A stretch of DNA of 64,000 nt from an uncultured Arcobacteraceae bacterium (GCA_964022095.1 CAXHZO010000013.1:1-64000), one strand, 5' to 3'; numbered from the stretch's first letter, positions 13,108-63,187 are shown. Notes: generated by a model not told the origin, from the letters alone. Program-made: numbers and translations.

Positions 13108-13117
13108 GGGTATTACT

Positions 13118-13669: not shown

Positions 13670-13679
13670 AGGGTAAAAT

Positions 13680-43895: not shown

Positions 43896-43996
43896 TGTAT
43901 ATTTTTTAATCAATAAAACTTAAATTTACATTATAAAATTAAAAATATAATATATTATTGTTTAAATAATATATTTAATACTTAAGAATACATTAA
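43896..43996 (-). promoter_or_regulatory. nirB composite regulatory region
   Basis: Palindrome TGTATATTTTTTAATCA (43896-43912); boxes rc ATAATGTAAATTTAAG (43919-43934) and rc TTAATGTATTCTTAAG (43981-43996). Confidence 0.6.
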
Positions 43997-45714
43997 AATA
44001 TAACTAAAAAGATATTGCTTATAAATAGTATAAACGATATCACTTGCCAAAATTTAACAGGATTTTTTTCTATTATTGGAACTTTATTTTTATTTAAAAA
44101 CTTTGGATTTGGTGTTTTTAAATCATAAATAAATTCTGATAATAAACTATATCTTTGATTTGGATCTACACTTAAGGCTTTTTTGATTGTTTCATTAAAC
44201 CATCTTGGAATTTTTATCTCTTTATTTATAATTGGAGAATATGTAAGTCTGTTTTGTGCTGATTTTGTTGTACTTTTTGCAACATCATTTCCGTAAGGAA
44301 ATTTTCCAGATAACATATAATAAATGATAACACCAAGGGAAAAAATATCTGATTTTACACTTCCTGTATCACCAAGAAAATATTCAGGTGCACTATATAA
44401 AGCAGTTCCTTGAATATGAAACTGTTTTGTAAAACTATCAATTTCTAAAATACCTTCAACTTTTGTAGCACCAAAATCAATTATTGTTACATGGTTGTTT
44501 TTATCTATTAAAATATTCTCAGGTCTTAAATCTTGGTGAACCATTTCATAAGTATGAAATGATTGAAGTCCATTTGCTATTTGATCAACAATATCCCTAA
44601 CCTCTTGTAAAGTAGGACTTGGATTATCTTTTATCCACTGTGCTAAAGTTTGCCCCTCAATAAAATTTGTAACTACATATAAATAGTTTTTTTCTCTATT
44701 TTGTTCATATGCTTTTAGTACATGCTTATTGTTTAATCTCTTTGCAATCCAATCTTCCATTAATAGTCGTTCTAAATAGGCATTGTCTTCTTTGAATTCA
44801 TATGATGGAATTTTTATTACAACTTTATCTTGAGTTTGTAAATCAATGGCTAAATAAACATGACTTCTACTGTTGTAATTAAGTGTCTTTAAAATCTTAA
44901 AACCATCAAATTCATCTTGCTCTTTTAAATCTTGATGAACTGGTTTTTCGTAGATTTCACTTTGTACTTCATTTACTTGTTTTTTGGGTAAATTATCAAT
45001 TTTAACAATTTGTAGTGTTAGATTATCATCACTTTTATTTTCAATTGCAGTATTTACTAACTTTTTTGCTAAATCATTTAAATCACCTTTATAAGAAGAG
45101 ACTTCCTTTATGAATGTTTCATTATTTATAAATTCATAAACACCATCTGTCATAAGCAAAAATAGGTCATCTTTTTCAAGAGGTGTTGATTCATAATCAG
45201 TATTTAAAACTGAATCAATTCCTAAAGCACGTGCAAGATAGCTTTTATCTTTTGATACCCAAGTTCTATGATCAGTTGTTAATTGTGTTAATTCATTATT
45301 TCTTATTTTATAAACTCTAATATCCCCCACATGAAGAATATGTGCAGTGTTTGATTTTAAAATCAAACTTGTAAAAGTACATACAAACCCACTATCTTTT
45401 TCAAGGTGGTATTGATTTTCTTTATTCTTTGAATATAGCCAAGAATTTGTTGCGTTTATTACTTTTGTTGCAGCATTTTTTACACTCCAAGCTTCACTTG
45501 TACAGTAATAATCTTCTAAAAATGTTTGAATACTAACTCGACTAGCTTCTTGACTTACATCACTACTACTTATACCATCAGCGATACAAATTGAAATACC
45601 TTTTGTTATAAGTTGTGGTTCTTTTGGAATTTTTATTTCATGGTAGTCTTGGTTGATTTTTTTAACACCTTTAGAAGTGTATTGACCATAAGAGATTTGA
45701 AGATTGTTTTGCAT
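43993..45714 (-). CDS. Bifunctional PP2C phosphatase-Ser/Thr kinase, C-terminal TM (copy 1)
   Basis: IADG, HVGDIR, TDG, DDNLT; VIK, HQDLRPEN, DFG, YSAPE. Confidence 0.9.
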   Translation of the reverse strand: MQNNLQISYGQYTSKGVKKINQDYHEIKIPKEPQLITKGISICIADGISSSDVSQEASRVSIQTFLEDYYCTSEAWSVKNAATKVINATNSWLYSKNKENQYHLEKDSGFVCTFTSLILKSNTAHILHVGDIRVYKIRNNELTQLTTDHRTWVSKDKSYLARALGIDSVLNTDYESTPLEKDDLFLLMTDGVYEFINNETFIKEVSSYKGDLNDLAKKLVNTAIENKSDDNLTLQIVKIDNLPKKQVNEVQSEIYEKPVHQDLKEQDEFDGFKILKTLNYNSRSHVYLAIDLQTQDKVVIKIPSYEFKEDNAYLERLLMEDWIAKRLNNKHVLKAYEQNREKNYLYVVTNFIEGQTLAQWIKDNPSPTLQEVRDIVDQIANGLQSFHTYEMVHQDLRPENILIDKNNHVTIIDFGATKVEGILEIDSFTKQFHIQGTALYSAPEYFLGDTGSVKSDIFSLGVIIYYMLSGKFPYGNDVAKSTTKSAQNRLTYSPIINKEIKIPRWFNETIKKALSVDPNQRYSLLSEFIYDLKTPNPKFLNKNKVPIIEKNPVKFWQVISFILFISNIFLVIF

Positions 45715-45765: not shown

Positions 45766-46206
45766 TTACCAAGATTTATAAGGTAAGAATTTTCCATTCA
45801 TAGTAATAACTACTCTATCACCAGCTGGATTTTCTTCTTTATCAATATCCATTGAGAAATCAATTGCACTCATAATTCCATCACCAAATTTTTCACCAAT
45901 AAGTTCTTTAATCGTATCTCCATAAACACCAATTACTTCATAGAACCTGTAAACAACTGGATCAGTTGGAATATCTTTTTCCCAAGTTTTGTATGGGAAT
46001 TCTATTAATGTTTTTTCAACATCTTTAGAAAGCTTTAAAACTTCGCATAGTTTCTTTGCATATTTTTTCTTCAAACTGTTTTGACCTAAACAAGCAGAAG
46101 TTAAAAATACACTTCCTAAACCAACCTTTGAAGATATCTCTTCCCAAGATAAACCTAAACTTTTTTTAGCAACTATAATCTCTTCTGTCATTTCAATTTT
46201 TGTCAT
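45766..46206 (-). CDS. cynS: Cyanate hydratase (cyanase)
   Basis: PTDPVVYRFYE, FGDGIMSAIDF, GKFLPY. Confidence 0.97.
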   Translation of the reverse strand: MTKIEMTEEIIVAKKSLGLSWEEISSKVGLGSVFLTSACLGQNSLKKKYAKKLCEVLKLSKDVEKTLIEFPYKTWEKDIPTDPVVYRFYEVIGVYGDTIKELIGEKFGDGIMSAIDFSMDIDKEENPAGDRVVITMNGKFLPYKSW

Positions 46207-46268
46207 TTTTAAATCCTTTCAGTTTTTTAAATTAGTAAAATATTTAGAGTTAAACACTTTAGTAATTT

Positions 46269-46301
46269 AAAAAAGGAAGTAGCGCGAATACTTCCTTTTT
46301 T
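46269..46301 (-). terminator. Stem-loop between FNT and cynS
   Basis: AAAAAAGGAAGTA-gcgcgaa-TACTTCCTTTTTT. Confidence 0.6.
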
Positions 46302-46309
46302 GATATTTA

Positions 46310-47158
46310 TTAAGCAGCTTCTTTTGAACTTGAAGAAGGTGTAGTTAATTCTCTTTTTGCACCAGTTTTATAGTGCGTGTAGTAAATCATTAATCCAACA
46401 AATAATAAACCACCAACTAAGTTACCTAATGCAACTGGTAATTCATTCCATAATAAGTAATCAGCAATTGTAAAATCACCACCCATAATTAGTGAGAATG
46501 GAAATAAGAACATATTAACAATTGAGTGCTCAAATCCCATAAAGAAGAACAGCATAACAGGCATCCACATAGCTAGCCATTTCCCTGAAACTGAAGTTGA
46601 AATCATAGCTCCAACAACACCCATAGAAACCATCCAGTTACATAACATACCTCTAATAAATACAGTAATCCATCCAGCAACTCCATATTCAGAATAACCT
46701 ACAGTTCTAGACTCTCCAATAGTTGCAACTTTTTGTGCAATAGCTCCACCATCAGTATTAAACCCCATAGTAAATATAAAGGCAATCATACAAGCAACCG
46801 TAAATGCACCACCAAAGTTACCCAGTGCTACTAATCCCCAGTTTCTTAAAATTTGACCTATTGTTACACCTGGTCTTTTATCAAGCCATGCTAGTGGCAC
46901 TAGTGTAAATACTCCAGTCAAAAGGTCAAACTTCATGAAATATAACATGATGAATCCCACAGGGAATAAACAAGCTCCTAAGATTGGAGAACCAGATTTC
47001 ATTGCAACAGTAATTGCAAATACAGCAGCTAGACCTAAAATAGCACCAGCCATATACGCTCTAATTAACGTATCTTTAGTTGACATGAAGACTTTCTCTT
47101 CACCAGCATCTACCATTTTCGTAGCGAATTCAGATGGATTTATATATGACATACTCAA
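46310..47158 (-). CDS. Formate/nitrite transporter (FNT) family channel, likely nitrite/cyanate
   Basis: FPVG, DLLTG, GNFGG, GMLCNWMV, FEHSIVNM, GNLVGG. Confidence 0.92.
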   Translation of the reverse strand: MSMSYINPSEFATKMVDAGEEKVFMSTKDTLIRAYMAGAILGLAAVFAITVAMKSGSPILGACLFPVGFIMLYFMKFDLLTGVFTLVPLAWLDKRPGVTIGQILRNWGLVALGNFGGAFTVACMIAFIFTMGFNTDGGAIAQKVATIGESRTVGYSEYGVAGWITVFIRGMLCNWMVSMGVVGAMISTSVSGKWLAMWMPVMLFFFMGFEHSIVNMFLFPFSLIMGGDFTIADYLLWNELPVALGNLVGGLLFVGLMIYYTHYKTGAKRELTTPSSSSKEAA

Positions 47159-47219: not shown

Positions 47220-47293
47220 GAGGAAAAATAGAGGAAAAGTAAAAAATACTGTATAAAAAGTATACAAACGCCTAGAATAGTTTGTTGTATAAT
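47220..47293. promoter_or_regulatory. Divergent FNT/sensor promoter region
   Basis: GAGGAAAA repeats at 47220 and 47231; palindrome TGTATAAAAAGTATACA at 47250-47266; TATAAT at 47288. Confidence 0.65.
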
Positions 47294-47314
47294 AAAAATA
47301 AAAAAGGAAATAAA

Positions 47315-48841
47315 ATAAAAAAATCTTTAATTTATCTTTTTGTATTCTTTTCATTATCACTTTTCTCTTTAATTGGATATACCATTAAAAGTTCATATCA
47401 AGTGCAAGAAGAACTACTAGAAGAGAGTCTAAAAAATAAAGCTCTTGCGATATTTAATCTTATAGTTGATATGAGGCACTGGAATGCCCAATATGAAGGT
47501 GTATATGTAAAATCAGACAAATTAGAACCAAATCCATATTTAAAACCTGGCTTTATAAAATCAGAACATGGGGAGAAACTAGTTTGGGTAAATCCTGCTT
47601 TTATGACAAGACAAATCTCAAATATTGCTAGCAAAAGAGATGGTTTTAAATTAAAAATTACAAGTAATAAACTTATAAATAAAAACAATGCTCCAGATGA
47701 GTTTGAAGCAGAAATTTTAAATTACTTTGATAAAAATCCTCAAATTCCTTATTATTGGGAAATTAAAGAGAATAATTTCAAGTTTATGGGAGCCCTTAAA
47801 ACAGAAAAAGCTTGTTTAGCTTGTCATGCTCATCAAGGTTATAAAGTAGGAGATATTAGAGGTGGTGTTTCTGTATCTTTTGATGTTGAACAAGAGTTTG
47901 AAAAACTTGAAGTAATAAATAAAGACAAAGAGCAAAGTTTATTTTTCTTAATCACAGCAGCAATTGGTGCAATTTTAACACTACTTATTCATCAAAATAT
48001 AAAAAGAGTAGATGAAGATAAAATTTCTGAACTTAATGAATCTTTAGAAGCAAAGGTTCAAGAGTTAGATGAGTTTAATAAAACACTTCATAAAAAAGTT
48101 GAAGTTGAATTAGTAAAACAAAGAGAAAAAGAAAATCTCTTAATCCAACAATCAAAATTAGCAGCTTTAGGAGAGATGATTGGAAACATTGCCCATCAAT
48201 GGAGGCAACCAATTAGTGCTGTAAGTGCTATTATGATGAATATTAAATGGACTGCTATTTCTCAAGGTGCTGATAAAAAATTTATGGATGAAACTATGAA
48301 AGAGGCAAATGAACAGTTACAATATATGTCTCAAACAATTGATGATTTTAGGAATTTTTTTAAACCAAACAAAGAAAAAGAGATGTTTGATATAAAAAAA
48401 GAGGTTAGAAAAGCATATAAAATTATGAGAGCAACTTTAGAAAACTATGAGATAAATACTCAAATACATAATAGAGTTGAAATAGATGTATATGGTTATG
48501 CAAATGAGTTTTCGCAAGTAATTTTAAATATCATCTCAAATGCAAAAGATGTTCTAATTCAAAAAAATATTCAAAATCCACGAATTGATATATTTTTATC
48601 AAAGGATGATGCCTTTGCTTATTGTGAAATTCTTGATAATGGTGGAGGAATACCTTTTGAGTGTATTCAAAAAATATTTGAGCCATATTTTACTACAAAA
48701 GAATCATCAGGAACGGGAATTGGATTGTATATTTCAAAAGAGATTATTGTAAAACATATGCAAGGTACACTTGAAGTTGAAAATACAAAAGATGGGGCAA
48801 AGTTTATAGTTGCAATACCTTTATATAAAGATGAGGTTTAA
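47315..48841 (+). CDS. Heme-c (DUF3365/Tll0287-like) sensor histidine kinase
   Basis: NPAFMTRQ, CLACH CxxCH motif, GDIRGG, AHQWRQP, GTGIGL; probable start at ATA 47315 (track start 47282). Confidence 0.85.
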   Translation: MKKSLIYLFVFFSLSLFSLIGYTIKSSYQVQEELLEESLKNKALAIFNLIVDMRHWNAQYEGVYVKSDKLEPNPYLKPGFIKSEHGEKLVWVNPAFMTRQISNIASKRDGFKLKITSNKLINKNNAPDEFEAEILNYFDKNPQIPYYWEIKENNFKFMGALKTEKACLACHAHQGYKVGDIRGGVSVSFDVEQEFEKLEVINKDKEQSLFFLITAAIGAILTLLIHQNIKRVDEDKISELNESLEAKVQELDEFNKTLHKKVEVELVKQREKENLLIQQSKLAALGEMIGNIAHQWRQPISAVSAIMMNIKWTAISQGADKKFMDETMKEANEQLQYMSQTIDDFRNFFKPNKEKEMFDIKKEVRKAYKIMRATLENYEINTQIHNRVEIDVYGYANEFSQVILNIISNAKDVLIQKNIQNPRIDIFLSKDDAFAYCEILDNGGGIPFECIQKIFEPYFTTKESSGTGIGLYISKEIIVKHMQGTLEVENTKDGAKFIVAIPLYKDEV

Positions 48842-48842
48842 T

Positions 48843-49514
48843 ATGGAAAGATTAAAATCAAAAACAATTTTACTCATAGAAGATGAAAGAACCATAAGAG
48901 AAAATATAGCTTCGATGTTAAAGTTTTTTTTCAAAGATGTTTATACTGCAATTGATGGTTATGATGGGTTAGATAAGTATGAACATTACTTACCAGATAT
49001 TGTAATAACTGATTTAAAAATGCCTAATATGGATGGATTTGAACTTATTGAAGAATTAACAAAAAGACAAAGTCAATCTTATACAATAATAGTTTCAGCC
49101 CATACTGATACAGAATTACTTATAAAAGCTATTCATGATGGAGTTGATAGATATTTAATAAAACCAGTAACTGAAGATGAACTTTTTGAAGCATTTGAAG
49201 CTTATTTAAAAAAGATTGATATAACACAACCACAAACTATTGAAATAGATAAAGATGTATTTTTAGAAACTGATAAAAAAAGTTTAATAGTTAAACAGCT
49301 CGAAGTACATTTAAATAAAAAAGAGTTTTTGCTTCTTAAACTATTAACTTCAAGTAATAATAAAACTTTTACATATGAAGATATTGAAAATGTAGTTTGG
49401 GGTGGGTCTGTTATGAGCCAATCTGCAATTAGAAGCGTTGTTAGGGATTTAAGAAAAAAAATAGGTCAAAATTATATTATAAATGTTTCAGGAGTAGGGT
49501 ACAGTTTAAAATAG
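48843..49514 (+). CDS. OmpR-family response regulator
   Basis: IEDE, TDLKMP, SAH, KP, GVGY; ATG 48843 after GAGG. Confidence 0.9.
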   Translation: MERLKSKTILLIEDERTIRENIASMLKFFFKDVYTAIDGYDGLDKYEHYLPDIVITDLKMPNMDGFELIEELTKRQSQSYTIIVSAHTDTELLIKAIHDGVDRYLIKPVTEDELFEAFEAYLKKIDITQPQTIEIDKDVFLETDKKSLIVKQLEVHLNKKEFLLLKLLTSSNNKTFTYEDIENVVWGGSVMSQSAIRSVVRDLRKKIGQNYIINVSGVGYSLK

Positions 49515-49600: not shown

Positions 49601-49700
49601 ATGGCTTGAAGGGAAATTGCGAACTTCCCTCAGAAAGTTAAGCGAATTTTTCAAATTTAATCTCCTAAATTAAAAAAAGGTTCTTAGGAACCTTTTTTTA
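49601..49700 (+). ncRNA. Candidate ~100-nt small RNA with anti-Shine-Dalgarno segment
   Basis: TATAAT at 49589-49594, 5' stem-loop, ATCTCCT at 49660-49666, intrinsic terminator. Confidence 0.45.
49671..49700. terminator. Bidirectional intrinsic terminator
   Basis: AAAAAAAGGTTC-ttag-GAACCTTTTTTT. Confidence 0.8.
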
Positions 49701-52013
49701 CCTATTGATTCTTTGTGATTCTTTATTTATTTTACTGGCAAATATTTCGTCTTTTATTACTAAATGTTCTAATTGAGCAACAATATCTTCATCTTTTACT
49801 TTTATTCCGTTTGGAACTTTTTTACTATGTAGTTGTACTGCACATTGTTTGAAGTTTGGTTCAAAAGATTTAGGATCAAAATCAGCTATTGTGATAGTAT
49901 TAATTAATTGTTCATTATAATGAAATGGCACAAAAATACTTCCAGGTCTAATATTTTGAGATTCTTTTACCATAATTTCATTGATTCTCCCTCTTTTTGA
50001 ACTAATATCTAATCTATCACCATTTTTTACTTTTAGTTTTTTAGCATCAACTGGATTTATTTCAATCCACGCTTCAGGAGCTAAATCATTTAAAATTGAA
50101 ATTGTTTTAGTCTTTGTTCTTGTGTGCCATTGTTCTACTGTTCTTCCTGTATTTAAAACAAGAGGGAAATTAGTATTACATGATTCTTTTAATGGCTTCC
50201 AATCAAGTGGAAGAAGGTTTGCTTTTCCAGATTCAGTTGGGTAAGGCATATCTTCACTATATAACCTTGCTTTTCCTTTTGGATATTTTTCATTACAAGG
50301 CCATTGAATTCCTCCTAATTCTTCAATTAATTCATAACTCATTCCTGAGTAATCACATAATCTGCCTTCACTTACTTTTTTCCATTCATTAAAAGCATCT
50401 CTTGGCTCACTCCAGTTTGGATATAATTTTTCATTTACACCTTCAAAGTACTTTGAAAATTCTAAAACAATATCAAAATCACTTTTTGTATCTCCAAGTG
50501 GTTCAGTAGCTTTCTTTGCATAGTTACATCTTCTTTCACTATTTGTATACACTCCCTCTTTTTCACTCCAGGTTGCTGCTGAAAATACAACATCAGCTTC
50601 AAGAGCTGTTTCACTTTTAAAGGCATCTTGAACAACCAAAACCTCTAGTTTTTCTAAAGCTTTTCTTAGTTTATTTTGGTCTGGATAAGATATTAAAGGA
50701 TTAGTTGCAACAAGCCATAATGCTTTAATTTCACCAGCTTCTATTGCATCAATAATTTGAGGATAAGAATATCCTCTTTTTGTAGGTATATCTTCTACTG
50801 GAACATTTATAAGTGTTGCATACTCTTCTCTATCATGTGCACTTGCAAAGTTTCTATAACCAGGAAGTGAGCTTGTAAATCCTGTCTCCCTTGTGCCCAT
50901 AGCATTACATTGGCCAGTTATTGAAAGTGCTGTTGCACCTTCACGTCCTAAATTGCCAGTAATTAATGATAAGTTACAAATTCCACTTACTGTATCAGTA
51001 CCAATTGAACTTTGATTAACACCCATTGTCCATGCACTCATAGCTTTGTCTGCTTTTGCATAAACTCTAGCTAGTTCATATAAATCTTTTACTTCAATAC
51101 CTGTTATATTTGCTACATCTTGAGGCTTGTAATTCTCCATGATATGTTTTCTAAACTCTTTATATCCAGTAGTTCTTTCTTTTATGAATTTTTCATTTTC
51201 CCAACCTTGCTCTAGAATTATATGACAAAGTCCATTCATAAGCGCAAGATCACTTCTTGGATTTATTGGAGCATAAATATCTGCCATATTTGCAGTTTTT
51301 GAAAATCTAGGGTCTATAACAATAATAGTTGGTTTTTTCCCAGTGATTTTTTTGTTTTTTGCAATATGAAGTTTTAAAATAGGGTGGTTATCCGCAATAT
51401 TTGCTCCAATTAGCATAATCACATCAGCATGTGAGAAATCTTCATAACATCCAACTGGTCCATCACTTCCAAATGTTTGTTTATATCCCATAACTGCACT
51501 TGCCATACATAGTGTTGTATTTCCACAGTAGTTATTTGTTTTTAAACCCATTTGAACAAATTTACCAAGACTATAAAATTCTTCAGTTAATAATTGACCA
51601 GTTGAAATAACACCTATTGCTGTATTCCCATATTTTGATTGGATTTCTTTAAATTTATCGCTTGTAGTTTTAAAAGTCTCATTCCAAGAAGATTCAACTA
51701 ATTTACCATTCTTTTTAATCATTGGAGCTGTAAATCTGTTTTCACTTTGTACCATCTCATGTTCACTTAAACCTTTTGGACAAAGTGTTCCTTTATTTAC
51801 TGGATGTGCGGGGTCACCTTTTGTATAAACTGGTTTTCCATCTTTAACTCCAATATATAATCCACAACCAACTCCACAATATCCACATGTACTTCTGACC
51901 CATTTATCAGGAGCCTTTTGTTTAGCTACTTTTCCAAATGTTTTATCATCAGTCAGTTCATATTTTTCATTCTTAATATCAAAATTTAGAAAGTTTTTTA
52001 TTTTGTTAATCAT
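49698..52013 (-). CDS. Mo-bisPGD oxidoreductase catalytic subunit (Nas/NarB-like paralog 2)
   Basis: CGYCGVGC...CPKG, NTTLCMASA, GQCNAMG, LNTGR...QWHTRT; no Tat signal. Confidence 0.85.
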   Translation of the reverse strand: MINKIKNFLNFDIKNEKYELTDDKTFGKVAKQKAPDKWVRSTCGYCGVGCGLYIGVKDGKPVYTKGDPAHPVNKGTLCPKGLSEHEMVQSENRFTAPMIKKNGKLVESSWNETFKTTSDKFKEIQSKYGNTAIGVISTGQLLTEEFYSLGKFVQMGLKTNNYCGNTTLCMASAVMGYKQTFGSDGPVGCYEDFSHADVIMLIGANIADNHPILKLHIAKNKKITGKKPTIIVIDPRFSKTANMADIYAPINPRSDLALMNGLCHIILEQGWENEKFIKERTTGYKEFRKHIMENYKPQDVANITGIEVKDLYELARVYAKADKAMSAWTMGVNQSSIGTDTVSGICNLSLITGNLGREGATALSITGQCNAMGTRETGFTSSLPGYRNFASAHDREEYATLINVPVEDIPTKRGYSYPQIIDAIEAGEIKALWLVATNPLISYPDQNKLRKALEKLEVLVVQDAFKSETALEADVVFSAATWSEKEGVYTNSERRCNYAKKATEPLGDTKSDFDIVLEFSKYFEGVNEKLYPNWSEPRDAFNEWKKVSEGRLCDYSGMSYELIEELGGIQWPCNEKYPKGKARLYSEDMPYPTESGKANLLPLDWKPLKESCNTNFPLVLNTGRTVEQWHTRTKTKTISILNDLAPEAWIEINPVDAKKLKVKNGDRLDISSKRGRINEIMVKESQNIRPGSIFVPFHYNEQLINTITIADFDPKSFEPNFKQCAVQLHSKKVPNGIKVKDEDIVAQLEHLVIKDEIFASKINKESQRINR

Positions 52014-52031
52014 TATATTATCCCCACTTTT

Positions 52032-53621
52032 TTATCCACGTTGATTTCCCATAAAGAAATTACCTGCTAGTCCTTGTGCAACTGCTGTTTTATAAAAAAG
52101 TGATCTTGAAATGATTTCACTAGAAAATGAAGTTAAACAAGATAACACTAAAAATAAAATAGCCCAAGTATAATTGTGACTTGCTATTAGAAGTAAACTT
52201 AATACTGGTAATACAAATGCCCCAATAGTTAATGTGATAGCTCTAACTTTTCTTAATTTTATAAAATTTTCTTCATATAAAGCTTTCGTCTTATTTAATT
52301 GATAATAATTTTTATGTTCCTTATCTAAGTTTTTATAAAATTTAATCTCTTTTGAAAACTCTCTAAATTGTAAGAATGCGATGAATACTCCTATTGGAAT
52401 TAGTAATAATGCAGATTCATATCTCTCTAAATTAACTAATACAATTCCAACAAGTAAGATTCCAATATACCCTACATTAAAGAAGATACTTGTTGTTTCT
52501 TCTTTATTCCAAGATGGTCTTGCTTTTATTCTATAAATCATAGATTGTGCATAAATACCATATCCTCCTATTGTAAATACAAAAGCTTCTAATATAAACC
52601 TAAAGAATTGATTTGCTTCAAAAAAGAACATTATAATTAATAGGGATAATCCAAATGTATATGCTCCAAGTGCTGCTGCTTCTCTACTTAGCCATGAAGT
52701 TTTTAAGTTTTTCATTGCTGTCATAGCAAGTCCTGGACGTCCAAGATGAAGGGCTGATAATGGAAGACCAATTGCTGCAGGTAAAAATACTGCTATCATC
52801 ATCCATAAAGAAGGTGTTGGTAAATTAAATCCTATAATATTGATAAATTCACCTAAAAATAGTGCTGTAAATCCTCCAAATGAAAGTTGTGTTAATACAG
52901 TCATAAATACAAGTGGCCACTCAGCATGATTTGGTTTTACAATATGTGAATCAGCAGGTGTCATATCTTCTGTTTCATCAATTGTATATCTTGTAGTTGG
53001 TTTAGTAATATCAATATCAGGAAGATTTGGTGCAATACCTTCTTTACTCATATCTTCATTTAGCCATTGTTTAACATTTACTACTTCAATTGCAATAGCA
53101 CCAGATGGACATGCTTGAACACATGCTGGAGTTTGTCCAACATCTAATTTTTCATGACACATATGACATTTAGTAACTATTCCTCTGTCTTTATTAAATG
53201 TTGGAACTTCATAAGGACAATTCCAAGTACAGTATTGACATCCAATACAACTATCATCATCATGAAAAACAATACCATTATCAAATTTTATATACGAATT
53301 TGTAGGACACCCGATTAAACATTCAGGTTCAATACAGTGATTACATGACATTGAATTAAAGTGATTTTTCACATTAGGGAAAATACCGCTTTGCGTTTCC
53401 CCAACTCTTCTCCATTTTACATCTGCATCATTATTATTTTGTTCATTGCATGCAACTTCGCAACAGTGACAACCAATACAGGCTGTTGCATCAAAGTGAA
53501 ATCTATATTGCTCTCCATATTTAGGTTTTGGAACTTCTATAGAGTAATTACCACATTGCATTCCTGTTTGGGCTTTGTGTTTAATAAAGTTTTCTAGTGG
53601 TGTTTTTTCGTTTTGACTCAT
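52032..53621 (-). CDS. Fusion of DmsB-like 4x[4Fe-4S] protein and DmsC-like membrane anchor
   Basis: Four Cys groups (CIGCHCCEVAC etc.), then EWPLVF, HLGRP, SWLSRE; ATG 53621 preferred over track start 53633. Confidence 0.85.
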   Translation of the reverse strand: MSQNEKTPLENFIKHKAQTGMQCGNYSIEVPKPKYGEQYRFHFDATACIGCHCCEVACNEQNNNDADVKWRRVGETQSGIFPNVKNHFNSMSCNHCIEPECLIGCPTNSYIKFDNGIVFHDDDSCIGCQYCTWNCPYEVPTFNKDRGIVTKCHMCHEKLDVGQTPACVQACPSGAIAIEVVNVKQWLNEDMSKEGIAPNLPDIDITKPTTRYTIDETEDMTPADSHIVKPNHAEWPLVFMTVLTQLSFGGFTALFLGEFINIIGFNLPTPSLWMMIAVFLPAAIGLPLSALHLGRPGLAMTAMKNLKTSWLSREAAALGAYTFGLSLLIIMFFFEANQFFRFILEAFVFTIGGYGIYAQSMIYRIKARPSWNKEETTSIFFNVGYIGILLVGIVLVNLERYESALLLIPIGVFIAFLQFREFSKEIKFYKNLDKEHKNYYQLNKTKALYEENFIKLRKVRAITLTIGAFVLPVLSLLLIASHNYTWAILFLVLSCLTSFSSEIISRSLFYKTAVAQGLAGNFFMGNQRG

Positions 53622-53622
53622 C

Positions 53623-55227
53623 TTATAATCCAATTCTTTCTTGTATTTCTTCTGTTGTTAATTTTGATAAAACTCTTGAATCAAAACTTTCAAATGTTTC
53701 ATCTTCTATTTTCTCATTTTTGTAAATCTCAATTAAATTTCTCACTATAATTTGAGCCTTTTTCATAGGAATGGCTTTTGAAATCTGTCTAGCTTCTAAA
53801 ACTTTTGAAGTTGCTTTACCCCCTAAAAATATTTTTACACCATCACATTTCTCACCATTTTCATCTTTTGCAATCGCTCCTTCAAATCCAATATCTGCAA
53901 CACCATGAACACCACATCCTTTTGGACATGCTGACCAATACATTCTTATTTTCCCATCTTTTATTGGAGTATATTGATTTAAATAAATTGCCATTTCGAT
54001 TGAATCAGATTTATTAGCTATTACACCAAATGAGCACTCATTAATACCTGCACATGCAATTTGATTTCTAAAAAAAACATTATTATATGAGTCATATTTT
54101 TTAAAAATCTGAGATTCTTTTATCGTTGTTATATTTTCAGTATTAGTTATTAAAAAGAAGCTTTGTTCATTTGTAAATCTTAATATTGAGTCTGTTGTTT
54201 CCATTAATTTAGTAATACAGTGTAAATCTTTACTATTAAAAAGTCCTGCTGGAATTGGAAAGTAAATTGCAGATTTATTGTTTTTTAGTTCTGTAATTGA
54301 GGATTTATCAATTTTATACTCTTTTTTTACTAGTAACTCTCCAGCCCCTAAAATATTTAAGCCAGATCTTTCTTTTAATATTTTTTCTAGTTCTTCTAAT
54401 CCAATTTCATCTATAAAAAAGTTTAATCTATTTTTATTTCTATTGTCTCTAAACCCATAAGTTTTAAATAAATCTAATAGTGTTGCAAAAATAGTTTTTA
54501 CTTCATTTGGTTTTACAAATATATTTGTAGGTCTTGCTTGAACTCCAACTTTCCCACCAAGATAAAGGTTGAATCCTATTTCTTCATTTTTTTTAGCTAG
54601 AACGAAAGCACAATCTTGACCATAAATATTACAATCATTAATAGTGTCACCTAATATTCCCGTATTGAATTTTCTTGTTAGAGTTCCTATAAAGTCTTCT
54701 TTTTTTAGAAATACATCGTGGATATCATCTACTAAACTTTTACACTCAATTAAAGAAGTCTTTGAATATCCATCAAGAGGAGAAGCTATAACTCCTCTTA
54801 CGTTATCTCCTGCTGTTTGATAAGTAGTTATTCCAACACTTTCTAATTTTTCTAAAACTGTAGGTAATTCTTCAAATCTTAAATGTCTAAATTCTACTTG
54901 ACTTCTTGTTGTCAAATCAATTCTACTTTTCCCATATTCTTTAGCAGTTTTACAAAATACTTTTGCTTGATTTAATGTAAGTTGACCATAAGGAATTCTA
55001 ATTCTGATAGCAAATTCATCATTAGATCCTTTGTCATAGATTCCATAACATTTTAATAAGTGTTTTGATTGAGCATTTGTAATATTTTCATATCCCATAT
55101 TACAGAATGTATGAAAATTATCAATGAAGTTTATTGCTTTTTGTTCACTTTTTAATTTCTCAATCTTATTGATTTTTTTATTTCTTCTTTCAAAGGCATC
55201 TTTTAATGTACTCATAATATTCTCCAA
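53623..55227 (-). CDS. nirA: Ferredoxin-type siroheme nitrite reductase
   Basis: DLTTR, GDNVR, RKFN, CAGINEC and SACPKGC ligands. Confidence 0.85.
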   Translation of the reverse strand: MENIMSTLKDAFERRNKKINKIEKLKSEQKAINFIDNFHTFCNMGYENITNAQSKHLLKCYGIYDKGSNDEFAIRIRIPYGQLTLNQAKVFCKTAKEYGKSRIDLTTRSQVEFRHLRFEELPTVLEKLESVGITTYQTAGDNVRGVIASPLDGYSKTSLIECKSLVDDIHDVFLKKEDFIGTLTRKFNTGILGDTINDCNIYGQDCAFVLAKKNEEIGFNLYLGGKVGVQARPTNIFVKPNEVKTIFATLLDLFKTYGFRDNRNKNRLNFFIDEIGLEELEKILKERSGLNILGAGELLVKKEYKIDKSSITELKNNKSAIYFPIPAGLFNSKDLHCITKLMETTDSILRFTNEQSFFLITNTENITTIKESQIFKKYDSYNNVFFRNQIACAGINECSFGVIANKSDSIEMAIYLNQYTPIKDGKIRMYWSACPKGCGVHGVADIGFEGAIAKDENGEKCDGVKIFLGGKATSKVLEARQISKAIPMKKAQIIVRNLIEIYKNEKIEDETFESFDSRVLSKLTTEEIQERIGL

Positions 55228-55262: not shown

Positions 55263-55351
55263 TTAATGTAAAATTAATTTTTATTGATTATAAAGTATAC
55301 AATTTTATAAATATAAGATAGTACTAGTATGTTATTTTATGTAAAGTTAAG
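55263..55351. promoter_or_regulatory. nirA composite regulatory region
   Basis: TTAATGTAAAATTAAT (55263), TGATTATAAAGTATACA (55285), TTTATGTAAAGTTAAG (55336). Confidence 0.6.
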
Positions 55352-55352: not shown

Positions 55353-57341
55353 TTATAGTTTTTTAATCTTAACTGCTGAATGATTATAATCAGGTTGTAA
55401 TGAGTCTTTATCGTAGATATCATTAGTTAGAAAATTTATATCTCTATTACTTACTGGTACAAAAATATTATCTTCATTTATATTTTCTGTTATAGTAACT
55501 ATAGTTTCTATTTCTCCTCTTCTTGAAATAATTTTAATTTTATCACCATCTTCTATTTTTAATTTCTTAGCATTTATTGGGTTGATCTCACAAAAATTTA
55601 ATGGTTTATGTTTTAAAAGTGTTCTTGGTAAATTTGTTTTTGTACCACTATGCCATTGATCTCTTGTTCTTCCTGTTAATAAAATAAATGGATATTCCAA
55701 ATTGGTTTTTTCACTTAATAGTTTATTTTCAACAAAGAATAGATTAGCTTTATTATTTTTTGTAAAAAACTCTTTTTCTTCTCTAATTTTTTCACCCCAA
55801 ATAAATGGTTGCTCTTTTAATTTTTCATAAGAAGTGTCATATACATTTAAATGAGGGTTTAATTTTGTCATCTCTTGATACTCTTTAAATATTTCTTCAG
55901 GACTAGAGTATTTAAACTCTTCTTCAAAGCCAAGTTTTTGTCCTAATAATTGAAATATTTCCCAGTCAGGTTTACAATCAATTGATGTTCTAGTTAGCTT
56001 TTCTTGTTTTGTAATTGTTCTATCTAGATTAGTTTGTGTTCCTTCTTTTTCTCCCCAAGGTGCTGCAGGAAGTTTTATATGTGCAAAATTAGCTGTTTCT
56101 GAATTTTCATAAGCATTTATTTCTACAACTAAAGGAATTTTTTTGATTAGTTCTTCCATTTTATTTCTATTTGCTAGATGGTAAATTGGGTCTGTATGAC
56201 AGATAATTAAGACATCTAAATCAGCTTCTAGCATTTGTGTTGCTGTAAGCCCTGGGATATTAGATACTTTATTTGTATTCCAAAAGTTATTTACTTTCTT
56301 TATGGATTCTTTATCAAAGTCTAAATGTACTGCAAGCATTGTTGAAAGTCCTCCAACTTCTCTTCCTCCCATTGCATTTGGTTGTCCAGTTAAAGAAAAT
56401 GGACCAGTTCCTTCTTTATATATTTTTCCTGTTAAAAGATGAGTATTAATAATACTTAAGTTTTTATCAACACCTTGAACTGATTGGTTTATTCCCATTG
56501 TCCATGCCGTGATAATTTTTTGATTTGCTTTATACATTTCCCAGAATTCTTCAAATTGTTCTTTTGTTAACCCTGTTCTTTTTAACATTTTAGTTACAGG
56601 AATTCTTTTGAATTTATTTTTAAGTAGTGTAAAATTGTTTACATTTTCCTCTATGAATTTTTCATCTACTAAATTTTCATCAATAATTCTTTTTGATAGA
56701 AGATTAAAAAAATCTATATCACTTCCAGGTTTAATAGGAAGATGTAAATCCGCAATTTTAGCTGTGTCAGTAAATCTTGGATCAATTGTAATTATTTTTA
56801 AACCTTGTTTTTTTGCTGTTTTAATTCTATTGTGAAATACTACATGGGCTTCAGCTGTATTTGCCCCAACTAGTATTAGTAAATCAGACTTAAATATATC
56901 ATCCATTCTCACTGGTACATAATCAATACCTAAAGCTTTTTTATATCCAACAACAGCACTAGACATACAAGTTCTACTATTTGTATCTACATTATTAGAT
57001 CCTATAAAACCTTTCATTAGTTTATTTGCAACATAGTAGTCTTCAGTTAAAAGTTGTCCTGATAGGTAAAAACCAACTTTATCTTTTGAAGTTGATTTAA
57101 TTGCATTTACAATTTTAGATATTGACTTATCCCAAGAAGTAGTTTTGTATTCTTGGTTTATGTTTTCTCTTATATGAGGTCTTAAAAGTCTTGTTGGTGT
57201 TTGAATACTTATTAATTCTGATACACCTTTTGAACATAGTCTTCCTTCATTTGTAGGATAGACTACATCACCTATTAATTTATTTTCTTCAAATTCAAGC
57301 CCACAACCAACACCACAATATCCACAAACTGACTTAATCAT
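55353..57341 (-). CDS. narB: Assimilatory nitrate reductase catalytic subunit (NarB/NasA-type)
   Basis: CGYCGVGC...CSKG, NSRTCMSSA, GQPNAMGGRE, TGRTRDQWH. Confidence 0.85.
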   Translation of the reverse strand: MIKSVCGYCGVGCGLEFEENKLIGDVVYPTNEGRLCSKGVSELISIQTPTRLLRPHIRENINQEYKTTSWDKSISKIVNAIKSTSKDKVGFYLSGQLLTEDYYVANKLMKGFIGSNNVDTNSRTCMSSAVVGYKKALGIDYVPVRMDDIFKSDLLILVGANTAEAHVVFHNRIKTAKKQGLKIITIDPRFTDTAKIADLHLPIKPGSDIDFFNLLSKRIIDENLVDEKFIEENVNNFTLLKNKFKRIPVTKMLKRTGLTKEQFEEFWEMYKANQKIITAWTMGINQSVQGVDKNLSIINTHLLTGKIYKEGTGPFSLTGQPNAMGGREVGGLSTMLAVHLDFDKESIKKVNNFWNTNKVSNIPGLTATQMLEADLDVLIICHTDPIYHLANRNKMEELIKKIPLVVEINAYENSETANFAHIKLPAAPWGEKEGTQTNLDRTITKQEKLTRTSIDCKPDWEIFQLLGQKLGFEEEFKYSSPEEIFKEYQEMTKLNPHLNVYDTSYEKLKEQPFIWGEKIREEKEFFTKNNKANLFFVENKLLSEKTNLEYPFILLTGRTRDQWHSGTKTNLPRTLLKHKPLNFCEINPINAKKLKIEDGDKIKIISRRGEIETIVTITENINEDNIFVPVSNRDINFLTNDIYDKDSLQPDYNHSAVKIKKL

Positions 57342-57395: not shown

Positions 57396-57435
57396 TTAAT
57401 GTAAAGTTAAGATAAGGTTGTTTATTAAATAAACA
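57396..57435. promoter_or_regulatory. narB composite regulatory region
   Basis: TTAATGTAAAGTTAAG (57396-57411) then TGTTTATTAAATAAACA (57419-57435). Confidence 0.65.
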
Positions 57436-57436: not shown

Positions 57437-59065
57437 TTATTTTAAAATTTGGCTTAAAAATATTGCATTGATAATTAGAAGCATGTAAAATCCAACTTTA
57501 TAGAATTTTTCAGGATTCTTTTTTAATAGTGGCGCTTTTTTATCAAAAAAAGGTTTGACTTTATGTGTATTTTCTATTTCATATTTCATATGAGAATATG
57601 ATTCATATCTCATATTTTCATCAATACTAATTGATCTAAGAATTACACTATTTAACCAATCTGGAATTTTATTGTTCAAAGATTTTGGATTTTTAGGAGT
57701 TTTAAAAGTAGGGTTTTGAAATGGTTCAATCTCACCATAAGGATATGTCCCTGTTAAGGCTTGATATAAAGTTACTCCAATAGAAAAAATTTCTGTTTTT
57801 TCATTTATAGTACTTTCTTCAAATCTTTCAGGGGCTAAATATGATGGTGTTCCCGCTTTAGAGTTTATTGAAAACACTTCTGTAATAGAACCAAAATCAA
57901 TTATTTTGAATAATCTTTTATCATCTCTTTGTAAAACCATAATATTTTCAGGTTTAATATCTCCATGTACTAAATTATATTTTAATAAATATTCTTCCAT
58001 TGAAAGTAAGGTTTTCGCTAAATTTATAGTATCATCAATTGTTAATTCTCTTTTTTTTAGATATTGCTTTAAATTAACACCATCTAATTTTGTCATTAGG
58101 TAATATCTTGCAGTTCTATGATTTGGAATAAATGATTTTGGAAAAAAACCTGCTTTTAATCTTTTTGCATTCCATGCTTCTTTTACATATAAATCTAATA
58201 GGGTATTATTATCAATTGCTTCAATAGGTGCAAACTTTATAACATATTCTTGTTCATTTTTTTTACAAATCCAAGTTCTATCATTTCTTATTAATGATTG
58301 TGTTAATTCAAATCCATCAATCACATCACTTTTTTTTAATTTTTCAGGAATTGATAATTTCATATTTTTTAGTATTTCTAATTGATCAGTATCGAGTATT
58401 TCTAAAACAATAGCACTTGTGTCATCTGGTAAGTTTTCTTCCATAAGAGAGCTGGCTTTTTTAACTATATGATATGCTCCACTTGTAAGGTGTTTAGTTA
58501 GAGTATCACTACTCATAATAGAATAAAGTCCGTCACTACACATTAGAATTTTGTCATCTTTATGGATATTATTTTCAAAATAGAAAATTTCTACTTCATT
58601 ATCTATTCCTATTGCATTTGATAAAACATTATCCATCCCATCTTCATTATGGTCATATGATAATTGACTAAGCTCATGATCTCTTAAAAGATATATTCTA
58701 CTATCTCCAACGTTTGCACCATAAAGTCTATTACCTTTGATAACACATACTGTTACAGTAGTTACATATTCAGGTCTTTCATATTCAGCAATTGATTGTG
58801 CATAAAGAATAGAGTTTATAGATTTAATAAATTCATGAATTGCTTTTTCAATAGTCCAAACTCTAGGTATATTTTTAAAGTTTGTAATTATATGTTGAGT
58901 TACTTTTTTAGCTGCAGAAGCACCTTCTTGAGCACTTCCTACTCCATCGCATAGCACAGCTATAGTCATATTATCAAGTTGTTTTACTTCATAAAAATCA
59001 TCACCAGTTAATTCTTTACCTTTTGTTAAAGAAAATCCACTTGCCTTGATATTACTTTTACTCAT
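57437..59065 (-). CDS. Bifunctional PP2C phosphatase-Ser/Thr kinase, C-terminal TM (copy 2)
   Basis: LCDG, NVGDSR, SDG, DDTSA; VIK, HGDIKPEN, DFG, YLAPE. Confidence 0.9.
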   Translation of the reverse strand: MSKSNIKASGFSLTKGKELTGDDFYEVKQLDNMTIAVLCDGVGSAQEGASAAKKVTQHIITNFKNIPRVWTIEKAIHEFIKSINSILYAQSIAEYERPEYVTTVTVCVIKGNRLYGANVGDSRIYLLRDHELSQLSYDHNEDGMDNVLSNAIGIDNEVEIFYFENNIHKDDKILMCSDGLYSIMSSDTLTKHLTSGAYHIVKKASSLMEENLPDDTSAIVLEILDTDQLEILKNMKLSIPEKLKKSDVIDGFELTQSLIRNDRTWICKKNEQEYVIKFAPIEAIDNNTLLDLYVKEAWNAKRLKAGFFPKSFIPNHRTARYYLMTKLDGVNLKQYLKKRELTIDDTINLAKTLLSMEEYLLKYNLVHGDIKPENIMVLQRDDKRLFKIIDFGSITEVFSINSKAGTPSYLAPERFEESTINEKTEIFSIGVTLYQALTGTYPYGEIEPFQNPTFKTPKNPKSLNNKIPDWLNSVILRSISIDENMRYESYSHMKYEIENTHKVKPFFDKKAPLLKKNPEKFYKVGFYMLLIINAIFLSQILK

Positions 59066-59117: not shown

Positions 59118-59147
59118 ATATAAAAAGAGGAAATCCTCTTTTTATAT
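59118..59147 (-). terminator. Stem-loop at end of narK
   Basis: ATATAAAAAGAGGA-aa-TCCTCTTTTTATAT. Confidence 0.6.
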
Positions 59148-60422
59148 TCTACCACCTGCTTGTACACCCCATGTAGTTCTCCATCTAGTTTTTACTAATG
59201 AAATACCTGAAATTGCAACTAATACAACTGCTGTAAAGATTAAGAATCCAGCTGTGTATCCATCAAATGCACCTTTTGACCAACCAAGAGTTTTAATTAA
59301 CGCTGTTCCTCCAAGTCCACCTGCACATCCAACAATACCAGTCATAATACCAATATCTTTACCAAATCTTTGTGGAACTAATTGGAATACAGCTCCATTT
59401 GCCATTCCAAGATTTGCCATAATAAGAAATAATACTAAAATAGCTACACTAAATGGTAAGTTATATGTAGCATTAATTATTGCTAATAGTGCAACTATAC
59501 CATAGAAAAAGTATAGAGACCTAACTCCACCAATTTTATCAGCAATTGCTCCCCCAACTGGTCTTAAAACAGCACCTGCAAAAATACATAAAGCACCAAA
59601 GTATCCAGCAATTACTTTTACATTTGACTCATCCAACACATCAATACCAAATGCACTCATATCTACTTGGTATGTATTCATTAAATATACTTTCATATAC
59701 CCTGCAAATCCAACAAAACCACCAAAACTTACAGCATAGAATAAACAGAACCACCAAGTGTCTTTATCTTTTAAAAGCTTACCATAATCTTTTAATTTTT
59801 TTGGATTTGCTTTATATACATCTTCAGGAGCATTTTTTGCTAAAAATAAGTAAGCAACAAATACTACAATTGCCATTGCTGCACCAACACCAAATACAGA
59901 TTCCCATCCCCAGATCTCTGCAATTTTTGGAGCAAATAAGAAGTCAATAACAACACCAATATTACCAGCTCCAGCAATTCCTAAAACAACACCTTGTAAT
60001 TTTGGAGGATACCATTGTCCAGCTTGTGGAAGTGCAACAGCAAATGAAGCACCAGCAAAACCAAGACCAAGTGCAACTACTAATAACTGATTATAAGTAA
60101 TATCATTACCTTGAAAATATGCAGTTAATAAAGCTGCAATTACAATACCTTGTGAAATAAGTGCAGTTAACTTTGCACCAATTTTGTCTACACCGAATCC
60201 TAAAACAATTCTTAGAATTGCACCAGAAAGTATTGGTAGTGATAATAAAGTAGCTTTTTCTCCTGCTGTCATTATATGACCACTTAAAGCTAAAGCTTCA
60301 CTAATTTCTGTACTTAATGGACCTAGCATTGTCCAAACCATAAAACTCATGTCAAAATATAAAAAAGCCATGAACAACGTTGCTGCGTGTCCTTGTCCTT
60401 TTAAGTCTTTTATTCCTGCCAT
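59142..60422 (-). CDS. narK: NarK/NasA (NNP family) nitrate/nitrite MFS transporter
   Basis: YFDMSFMVW, GFAGASF, GAGNIG, FGGFVG, GNGAVFQLVP-like MANGAVFQLVP. Confidence 0.92.
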   Translation of the reverse strand: MAGIKDLKGQGHAATLFMAFLYFDMSFMVWTMLGPLSTEISEALALSGHIMTAGEKATLLSLPILSGAILRIVLGFGVDKIGAKLTALISQGIVIAALLTAYFQGNDITYNQLLVVALGLGFAGASFAVALPQAGQWYPPKLQGVVLGIAGAGNIGVVIDFLFAPKIAEIWGWESVFGVGAAMAIVVFVAYLFLAKNAPEDVYKANPKKLKDYGKLLKDKDTWWFCLFYAVSFGGFVGFAGYMKVYLMNTYQVDMSAFGIDVLDESNVKVIAGYFGALCIFAGAVLRPVGGAIADKIGGVRSLYFFYGIVALLAIINATYNLPFSVAILVLFLIMANLGMANGAVFQLVPQRFGKDIGIMTGIVGCAGGLGGTALIKTLGWSKGAFDGYTAGFLIFTAVVLVAISGISLVKTRWRTTWGVQAGGRI

Positions 60423-60490: not shown

Positions 60491-60814
60491 TGTATAAAAA
60501 ATAAGCAATTTATAAATATTACTATTATATTTAATGTAATATTAAGTCTTAAATTGAATAATTTGAAAGTATATGACTAATAAATCAAATTATTAATGTA
60601 AATATAAGTTTTACTGTTTATTAAAGATACAATGTGTATATAATATATATAACTCTATTAGTTAAAGTATATACAATGTTTAATTCTTTATCTTTAAAAT
60701 ATTAATGTTTATTTAAGCTAAAAATAATGTTATGTATATTGTTAATTGCTTTATTGTTTTTTATAATATAGCTATTAATGTAATATTAAGTTTAAAATGT
60801 ATAAAAAGTAAACA
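60491..60814. promoter_or_regulatory. Divergent narK/nrtA control region with multiple conserved boxes
   Basis: Direct-repeat boxes at 60531, 60593, 60702, 60775; palindromes at 60491, 60615, 60798. Confidence 0.65.
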
Positions 60815-63172: not shown

Positions 63173-63187
63173 GGTAAAGGGTATAAA

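Follow-up and report, generated by a model that had tools for sequence, protein, structure and literature searches.

A putative quinol-dependent assimilatory nitrate reductase composed of a Nas/Nap-like molybdoenzyme and a DmsB-DmsC fusion protein

Organization of the nirA-fusion-MoA genes

This study concerns three genes located in a 64,000-nucleotide stretch of DNA (hereafter the window) from an uncultured marine Arcobacteraceae bacterium (GCA_964022095.1, CAXHZO010000013.1:1-64000). The genes lie on the minus strand at 49698-55227 and code, in the direction of transcription, for a NirA-like sirohaem/[4Fe-4S] nitrite reductase (53623-55227, 534 amino acids, likely ATG at 55215), for a polypeptide in which a DmsB-type iron-sulfur (Fe-S) subunit is fused to a DmsC-type membrane anchor (52032-53633, 533 amino acids from a TTG codon or 529 from the likely ATG at 53621), and for a 771 amino acid catalytic subunit resembling the nitrate reductases with a molybdenum-bis(pyranopterin guanine dinucleotide) (Mo-bisPGD) cofactor (49698-52013). 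The latter will be called MoA. A preliminary description had presented the three as tightly linked genes whose products have no twin-arginine translocation (Tat) signal, and had interpreted them as a single module, possibly an assimilatory complex that is anchored in the membrane and takes its electrons from quinol. The linkage is as described there, the three genes are co-oriented, and a search with a regular expression found no twin-arginine motif in any of the three proteins.

The nirA stop codon and the likely ATG of the fusion gene are 1 nt apart (the junction reads TAAgATG), and nirA is translationally coupled to the fusion gene. The stop codon of the fusion gene is separated from the ATG of MoA by 18 nt, which include a Shine-Dalgarno-like GGGGA run. 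A terminator scan and the sequence itself revealed a hairpin flanked on both sides by A and T runs (49671-49700) and overlapping the MoA stop codon; it is likely to be a bidirectional terminator that ends the operon. The three genes complete a co-oriented run, narK (first) - PP2C/kinase - narB-like - nirA - fusion - MoA, within a nitrogen-assimilation island that occupies positions 41-64 kb of the window. The host genome has a size of 2.57 Mb and is 99.99% complete. Its nearest relatives in public contigs are Aliarcobacter/Arcobacter metagenome-assembled genomes and isolates, whose fusion proteins are 77-79% identical to that of the window.

The DmsB-DmsC fusion protein

When compared with Pfam, the fusion protein matched Fer4_11 over residues 90-182 (73.7 bits) and DmsC (PF04976) over residues 237-514 (72.3 bits, cut-off 22.3). 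With these two matches and four cysteine motifs, the fusion of an Fe-S subunit to a DmsC-type anchor, which had been noticed earlier, is evident: a domain for four [4Fe-4S] clusters (approximately residues 40-190) is joined by a linker to eight transmembrane helices (239-510). The score against the DmsB model TIGR02951 (144.4) was under the cut-off of 214.1. A HMMER search of 1.84 billion representative proteins yielded 9949 relatives at E<=0.001 and 685 at E<=1e-30, many of which are full-length fusions of 500-600 residues.

Alignment of 26 diverse fusions (30-55% identity) showed that all 16 cluster cysteines are invariant. The same holds for H296, L297, G298, P300, S313, S316, R317 and E318, which form the motifs HLGxP and SxxSxE. 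When E.coli DmsC was added to the alignment, H296 and E318 aligned with its residues His65 and Glu87. According to the accessible text of PMC8076601, replacement of His65 blocks quinol oxidation by DmsC, Glu87 matters for quinol binding, and the same two quinone-site residues are listed for SoeC.

The Fe-S domain leads into the first anchor helix without an additional helix in between, therefore it is on the side of the anchor N-terminus. Lysine and arginine residues (K+R) in the loops numbered 12-23 on the Fe-S side versus 0-5 on the other side in all 26 fusions; the counts were 21 versus 2 in the fusion of the window, and 3 versus 3 in E.coli DmsC. None of the 26 proteins had a Tat motif upstream of the first cluster. 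An AlphaFold model of the fusion (predicted local distance difference test score, pLDDT, 89.0; predicted template modelling score, pTM, 0.88) consisted of an Fe-S half matching ArrB, FdnH and PsrB and an anchor half matching PsrC and ActC. The K+R bias, the missing Tat motif and the model suggest that the Fe-S domain is exposed on the cytoplasmic face of the membrane. If so, the anchor is inverted relative to E.coli DmsC, and the quinol site would be on the cytoplasmic face, too. Topology prediction was one of the checks named in the preliminary description; the other two that could be performed on the sequences, phylogeny of the molybdenum (Mo) subunits and modelling of the complex, are presented in the following sections.

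The catalytic subunit MoA

MoA matched the Pfam families Molybdop_Fe4S4 (70.2 bits), Molybdopterin (238.2 bits) and Molydop_binding (92.1 bits). The closest solved structure was that of Desulfovibrio desulfuricans NapA, which matched over the full length with 438.8 bits. Residues C169, M170, M330 and R375 of MoA aligned with positions 140, 141, 308 and 354 of the NapA chain, where Cys140, Met141, Met308 and Arg354 are presumably the Mo ligand and active-site residues. These four residues were invariant in 17 members of the MoA clade (38-86% identical to MoA). Cysteines 43, 46, 50 and 78 of the FS0 cluster (CX2CX3C...C) are also invariant. The motifs by which MoA had been distinguished from the neighbouring NarB-like protein are present as quoted (GNTTLCMASAV and TGQCNAMGTRE in MoA, NSRTCMSSAV and TGQPNAMGGRE in the NarB-like protein). 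Cys369, which belongs to the motif GQCNAMG, was found in 17 of 17 clade members; the NarB-like protein, D.desulfuricans NapA and the Nas/Nap enzymes have Pro at this position (GQPNA). The place of the Nap Tat signal is taken by a clade-specific N-terminal extension of approximately 35 residues (MoA ~1-40). With a score of 152.2 against a cut-off of 777.7 for the dmsA_ynfE model, MoA is not of the DmsA type.

Phylogenetic trees were rooted on E.coli DmsA, which forms a distant outgroup. The reference sequences were E.coli NapA and FdhF, the NapA proteins of Paracoccus and Sulfuricurvum, the NapA encoded by the genome itself, the NasA proteins of Ralstonia and Roseibium, NarB of Rhizobium gallicum, a Mycobacterium NasN-type enzyme and the Chondrinema nitrate reductase. 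E.coli FdhF, E.coli DmsA and the Mycobacterium enzyme had long branches. All fusion-linked MoA proteins fell into one clade (FastTree, 84 rows, SH-like support 99; IQ-TREE with LG+C20, 25 rows, SH-aLRT 99), which was separated from both NapA (support 100) and the NasA/NarB/NasN group (support 95); the branching order of the three clades was not settled by the trees. The second Mo enzyme of the island, the NarB-like protein, is 35% identical to MoA and was placed within the NasA/NarB/NasN clade as a sister to a Bacteroidota nitrate reductase.

The regular expression used for Tat motifs recognized all five positive controls (NapA of E.coli, Paracoccus, Sulfuricurvum and of the genome itself, and E.coli DmsA). 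Among 94 Mo proteins it gave five matches, none of them credible for lack of a hydrophobic region or because of upstream read-through. Neither the fusion nor MoA is thus predicted to be exported.

Model of the complex

Full-length MoA was modelled together with residues 1-225 of the fusion, each partner having its own alignment. The complex obtained a score of 0.88 (median of three runs) versus 0.00 for the best of three controls. In a benchmark, a score of 0.88 was attained by 116 out of 157 complexes of known structure and by 2 out of 215 mismatched pairs. The runs agreed in at least 83% of the contacts, and pLDDT of the partners was at least 80. In the modelled interface residues 63-83 (around FS0) and 13-33 (the extension) of MoA are packed against residues 51-71 and 149-178 of the fusion. 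The latter two stretches are the first and the last cysteine motifs, which in such proteins jointly bind the cluster nearest to the catalytic subunit. Since similar complexes have been solved (FdnGH, PsrAB, FdhF-HycB), the score shows likeness to these complexes, which may account for part of it, and is not proof of binding.

Conservation of the fusion-MoA gene pair

Two scans of contigs representing one genome per species gave 114 loci, of which 111 were unique and contained the fusion (individual loci are designated by the letter L and a number). They span about 11 phyla: Campylobacterota, Spirochaetota (Turneriella), Latescibacterota, Acidobacteriota, Actinomycetota (Acidimicrobiia), Chlamydiota, Omnitrophota, Myxococcota, Planctomycetota, Verrucomicrobiota and Poribacteria. 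Adjacency of MoA could be assessed in 89 loci with at least 2.6 kb of DNA downstream of the fusion gene. A MoA-like gene was present on the same strand within 1 kb in 79 of these 89 informative loci, and at a distance of 2.3-5.8 kb in five further ones. At least one of NarK, NrtABC, NirB/D, NirA, FNT and cyanase was encoded in 85 of the 111 loci; the 26 loci without any of them were mostly short. In L016 and L021 the order is NarK - PP2C/kinase - fusion - MoA - NirB - NirD, and the locus has no other Mo enzyme.

The two genes also occurred together in whole genomes. Twenty of 201 Campylobacterota genomes had both the fusion and a MoA orthologue (at least 63% identity, more than 1000 bits; next-best matches 35%), and none had only one of them. 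Similarly, both genes were found, adjacent to each other, in eight of 101 Planctomycetota genomes and none had only one; nine further Planctomycetota genomes encoded distant Mo enzymes only (32-39%) and no fusion. Because the genomes are related to one another, these counts do not represent independent events.

The other two genes of the neighbourhood were much less constant. Campylobacterota loci encoded NirA in 25, NirB in 9 and a NarB-like protein in 12 of 60 cases, and of the 50 loci with sufficient upstream DNA, 15 had NirA immediately before the fusion. The 51 loci of other phyla encoded NirB in 30 and a NirA-like protein in 7 cases. The conserved unit is therefore two genes, fusion and MoA, and not the three-gene module suggested at first; nirA and the NarB-type gene are variable, lineage-specific additions to the fusion-MoA core.

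Some loci were interrupted. A chemotaxis cluster (methyl-accepting chemotaxis protein, CheW, CheB, CheR) is located between fusion and MoA in some Sulfurimonas-type loci (in L060 at 8638-13731). In L018 a toxin gene, flagellar genes and an integrase follow the fusion gene. A different partner for the fusion in L018 and L060 was considered and rejected; these loci look like rearrangements or insertions. A tblastn search of 72,556 plasmid records with the fusion protein detected only split dmsB plus dmsC pairs, and in the single record that covered at least 80% of the query the match was in two pieces.

Operator-like motif

A partly palindromic motif, TTAATGTAA-N2-TTAAGT, was found 11 times in the window when up to three mismatches were allowed, versus 3.4 expected occurrences; none of 100 shuffles reached 11. 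Seven of the 11 copies are in intergenic regions of the island: one between the narB-like gene and nirA, 36-52 nt upstream of the likely nirA start (55263-55279, plus strand), one upstream of the NarB-like gene (57396-57412), three between narK and nrtA (60531-60547, 60593-60609 and 60775-60791), and two upstream of nirB (43918-43934 and 43980-43996). With up to two mismatches, 14 Arcobacteraceae loci contained 45 matches, the shuffle control applying to the window only. Thirty-seven of the 45 were 26-325 nt upstream of narK, the NarB-like gene, nirA, nirB, or the fusion gene where nirA is absent (L033 and L046), three were inside genes and five in stretches outside the gene set. At this stringency the motif was absent from three of the 14 loci (L007, L009 and L021), and its positions were conserved in eight related Arcobacteraceae loci.

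The occurrence of the motif upstream of narK/nrtA, of the narB-like gene, of the nirA-fusion-MoA genes and of nirB ties the module to the nitrogen regulon. The OmpR-type regulator encoded next to MoA is a candidate for the motif-binding protein. Another operator, TGATT-N7-AATCA, was rejected: with one mismatch it had five matches in the window versus 11.8 expected, none of them in promoters of the island.

Other genes of the island

The NirA-like protein contains NIR_SIR and NIR_SIR_ferr domains (113.4 and 67.9 bits in Pfam) and the sirohaem/[4Fe-4S] motif CX5C...CX3C (CAGINEC and CPKGC). Its closest solved structure was spinach ferredoxin-nitrite reductase (192.6 bits), and its score against the NCBIfam NirA model NF007125 was 289.9, under the cut-off of 594. 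Upstream of nirA lie the genes for the NarB-type second assimilatory nitrate reductase (55353-57341, minus strand, 662 amino acids, no partner domain), for a PP2C-phosphatase/Ser-Thr-kinase fusion (57437-59065, minus strand) and for the nitrate/nitrite transporter NarK (59142-60422, minus strand; TIGR00886, 236.3 bits, and Pfam MFS_1), followed by nrtABC on the plus strand (60884-63988). The closest plasmid-borne relative of the NarB-like protein is an 1178 amino acid protein encoded by a Chondrinema plasmid (L132, 5986-11030), in which a nitrate reductase is fused to an NAD(P)H-flavin reductase and to a BFD [2Fe-2S] domain. The following gene codes for a 480 amino acid protein that has both a NIR_SIR ferredoxin-like half domain and a rubredoxin domain. 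The NarB-like protein of the window has no such reductase/BFD extension.

On the other side of the operon, a histidine kinase with a Tll0287-like sensor domain (47282-48841) and the OmpR-type response regulator (48810-49514), both on the plus strand, are transcribed towards the end of the MoA operon. These two genes adjoin MoA again in L002-L004, L031 and L033. Next come, all on the minus strand, an FNT channel (46310-47158), a cyanase (45766-46206), another PP2C/kinase fusion (43993-45714, the first copy along the window), the NAD(P)H nitrite reductase NirB (41369-43831; TIGR02374, 909.5 bits, above cut-off) and its partner NirD (41057-41365; TIGR02378, 95.1 bits, above cut-off). The cyanase and the formate/nitrite-family channel are thus placed between nirBD and the regulators (45766-47158), which suggests that cyanate could be a further nitrogen source. 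The two PP2C/kinase genes are paralogues, one of them directly downstream of narK. The NarK - PP2C/kinase pair is kept in many Campylobacterota loci, with the kinase gene present in 27 of 60, and the kinase may exert post-translational control over nitrate uptake or assimilation. The island is bordered by a gene for a 1018 amino acid DUF285/PARCEL-repeat protein with PKD and Big_5 domains (37902-40958).

Outside the island, on contig C1 (about 331.7-334.5 kb), the genome encodes a periplasmic NapA of the Campylobacterota type, whose Tat signal is clear. MoA, the NarB-type enzyme and NapA together give the cell three differently wired nitrate reductases, and it is particular to this genome that the MoA-fusion pair is kept beside a NarB-type reductase, two nitrite reductases and NapA. 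Contigs assembled from two sequencing runs covered 53589-55107, 51485-51858 and 55644-56282 of the window. The library text of these runs reads metagenomic RNA-Seq, but that the material was RNA is a guess, and the contigs were not read as expression.

Proposed function

MoA and the fusion probably form a two-protein, cytoplasm-facing quinol:nitrate oxidoreductase that serves assimilation and is built like SoeABC. Complex formation, orientation, substrate, donor and physiological role are what we infer here; the domain make-up, the conserved ligands, the absent export signals, the synteny and the co-occurrence can be read directly from the genes. Quinol would bind to the DmsC-type site at His296 and Glu318 on the cytoplasmic face of the membrane, and its electrons would pass through the four [4Fe-4S] clusters of the fusion to FS0 of MoA and on to Mo-bisPGD, with Cys169 as the ligand. 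There nitrate would be reduced to nitrite in the cytoplasm, and nitrite could then be converted to ammonium by NirA and/or NirBD. Protons would be released from quinol and taken up in nitrate reduction on the same side of the membrane, so that no redox loop arises and the simplest expectation is an electroneutral drain on the quinol pool. The membrane-anchored, quinol-fed assimilatory complex of the preliminary description is thus the reading best supported by synteny, co-occurrence, predicted topology, quinol-site residues and the complex model, with the amendment that nirA would be an accessory and not part of the core.

There is slightly more reason to accept than to reject the wider proposition that these enzymes constitute a previously unrecognised class of assimilatory nitrate reductases, defined by the donor: a class using quinol at the inner membrane face and distributed over at least 11 phyla. 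In the boldest version of this proposition the driving force between menaquinol and nitrate would power an NrfD-type proton path, making the reaction electrogenic and nitrate assimilation partly self-paying.

Several observations weigh against a quinol:nitrate oxidoreductase of this kind. The orientation is supported by positive-inside counts and a structure model, i.e. by predictions. MoA was not found in the fetched DNA of five of the 89 informative loci (L018, L025, L049, L050 and L063), and in three whole genomes fusion and MoA were on different contigs or 50 kb apart. MoA scored below every curated NCBIfam cut-off (NasC 530.9 of 1100, NasA_Halo 495.4 of 1000, the two NapA models 432.9 of 904 and 426.1 of 930.55), and the best-scoring model was Fdh-alpha (590.6 of 666). 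The MoA rows of the trees had been chosen by linkage to the fusion, and the references were without Bacillus subtilis NasC, cyanobacterial NarB and monomeric NapA. Finally, the island also codes for a NarB-type reductase and contig C1 for a periplasmic NapA, therefore MoA need not be required for growth on nitrate in this organism.

Other functions can be envisaged for the pair. The fusion might be a shared quinol hub that feeds NirA as well as MoA, in which case all eight electrons needed to convert nitrate to ammonium would come from quinol. The 1 nt spacing between nirA and the fusion gene, the immediate succession of NirA and fusion in 15 of 50 Campylobacterota loci and the existence of several Sulfurimonas/Sulfurovum-type loci with NirA and without NirBD point in this direction. 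However, the pair is accompanied in other phyla by NirB (30 of 51 loci) far more often than by a NirA-like protein (7 of 51), the closest solved relatives of NirA are ferredoxin-dependent enzymes, and menaquinol is a poor donor for the low-potential sirohaem/[4Fe-4S] centre. We regard such a hub as unlikely.

No better are the chances of a mainly dissimilatory or redox-balancing role, perhaps with energy gained through an NrfD-type proton path and with assimilation as a by-product. The architecture is that of the respiratory complex iron-sulfur molybdoenzymes (CISM), electron transfer from menaquinol to nitrate has a large driving force, and ion pathways in NrfD-like subunits have been proposed in the available part of PMC8076601. 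Against this role stand the assimilatory context in 85 of the 111 loci, the predicted position of the quinol site on the side of the active site, which would allow no redox loop, and the presence in the genome of a NapA that is already available for respiration.

Somewhat less probable still is that the DmsC domain is a mere tether and that a soluble protein, for example ferredoxin, flavodoxin or NirB, feeds the Fe-S domain. Assimilatory nitrate reductases are known to use soluble donors and Campylobacterota are rich in ferredoxin and flavodoxin, but a tether would hardly explain why 26 fusions with as little as 30-55% identity all keep the His and Glu of the quinol site together with the surrounding HLGxP and SxxSxE motifs.

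The least probable alternative, a substrate other than nitrate (chlorate, selenate or formate) in an incidental nitrogen context, could invoke the sub-threshold nitrate reductase scores with Fdh-alpha as best model, the Cys369 in place of the Pro of GQPNA and the second nitrate reductase next door, but it conflicts with the invariant NapA-type Cys-Met pair, Met and Arg of the active site (formate dehydrogenases have (Se)Cys-His at the Cys-Met position) and with the many loci in which MoA is the sole Mo enzyme of the nitrate-assimilation cluster, and the earlier suggestion that MoA may be a paralog with a different substrate is accordingly unlikely.

Comparison with known systems

Textbook accounts of bacterial nitrate assimilation have ferredoxin/flavodoxin or NAD(P)H as the electron donor. 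If the function proposed here is true, the cost of nitrate assimilation will have to be recounted in sulfur- and hydrogen-oxidising chemolithotrophs, where NAD(P)H is expensive, and likewise in planctomycetes, acidobacteria, verrucomicrobia and other carriers of the pair. The organism studied here lends itself to the question why a single cell maintains nitrate reductases with different wiring. The closest homologues of the fusion have generic public names such as 'DMSO reductase anchor subunit' or 'DmsC/YnfH family', and under the former name marker-gene surveys may misread both genes. One cluster of 53 such fusions in the ESM Atlas was automatically named 'Nitrate reductase (Quinol-dependent), transmembrane subunit', which implies that the annotation of some depositor already took the quinol-dependent reading.

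No characterised enzyme matching the module was found. A full-text search, with subscription journals, 1.7 million PMC articles and supplements outside its reach, found no paper on a DmsB/DmsC-linked or quinol-dependent assimilatory nitrate reductase. The MoA-fusion design is not mentioned in the accessible portions of 10.1101/717884, PMC3475470, PMC12769810, PMC10609526 and PMC10100899, and the term nitrate reductase has no occurrence in that of PMC8076601. As stated in the sections at hand of PMC7331816, members of the clade comprising Nas, Nap, Aio and cytoplasmic Fdh never occur with canonical four-cluster or anchor subunits; to the generalisation as worded in these sections the MoA-fusion module is an exception.

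The module combines a catalytic subunit of the Nas/Nap type with a CISM electron-transfer module that is fused and, by prediction, inverted; it is widespread and uncharacterised, and it shares different features with different known enzymes. MoA has in common with NarB, NasA, NasC and NasN the cytoplasmic location, the Mo-bisPGD cofactor, FS0 and a Cys ligand, and like theirs its gene is found in nitrate-assimilation clusters with NirBD/NirA and nitrate transporters. These enzymes receive electrons from ferredoxin/flavodoxin or, by way of flavoprotein partners or fused domains, from NAD(P)H (examples are the Ralstonia, Mycobacterium and Chondrinema loci), whereas MoA forms a clade of its own (support 99) and is linked to a membrane Fe-S/anchor protein. 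The monomeric NapA of D.desulfuricans (PDB 2NAP and 2JIO) shares with MoA the active-site residues Cys, Met, Met and Arg. It is, however, periplasmic and Tat-dependent, whereas MoA has no signal and its N-terminal extension is modelled against the Fe-S domain.

The Fe-S and anchor parts resemble E.coli DmsABC and Thermus PsrABC. They are collinear with dmsB-dmsC, have the four Cys motifs and retain counterparts of His65 and Glu87 in the quinol site of DmsC, and the folds match PsrB and PsrC. DmsABC and PsrABC are Tat-exported and face the periplasm, their B and C subunits are separate, and the catalytic subunit is of the DmsA/PsrA clade. The module differs from them in the lack of a Tat signal, the reversed K+R bias, the fusion of B and C, and the Nas/Nap-like catalytic subunit.

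The nearest parallel in overall design is SoeABC of Allochromatium vinosum and Aquifex aeolicus, the likeness being drawn from its description and not from a comparison of Soe sequences with the module. SoeABC has a Mo subunit without Tat signal, an Fe-S subunit with four clusters and an anchor of the DmsC/NrfD type with eight helices. As far as the text of PMC8076601 is accessible, it is singled out among the NrfD-type complexes as facing the cytoplasm on an inverted anchor, which is put forward there as a hypothesis, and SoeB and SoeC are separate subunits; the corresponding parts form a single polypeptide in the window. The direction of electron flow would differ as well: SoeA oxidises sulfite and reduces quinone, whereas for the Nas/Nap-like MoA in its nitrogen context flow from quinol to the substrate is expected. 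By prediction, MoA and the Fe-S domain constitute, as in SoeABC, a cytoplasm-facing Mo/Fe-S dimer on an inverted DmsC-like anchor, and if this is true the module would stand beside SoeABC as a second inverted complex of the NrfD/DmsC type.

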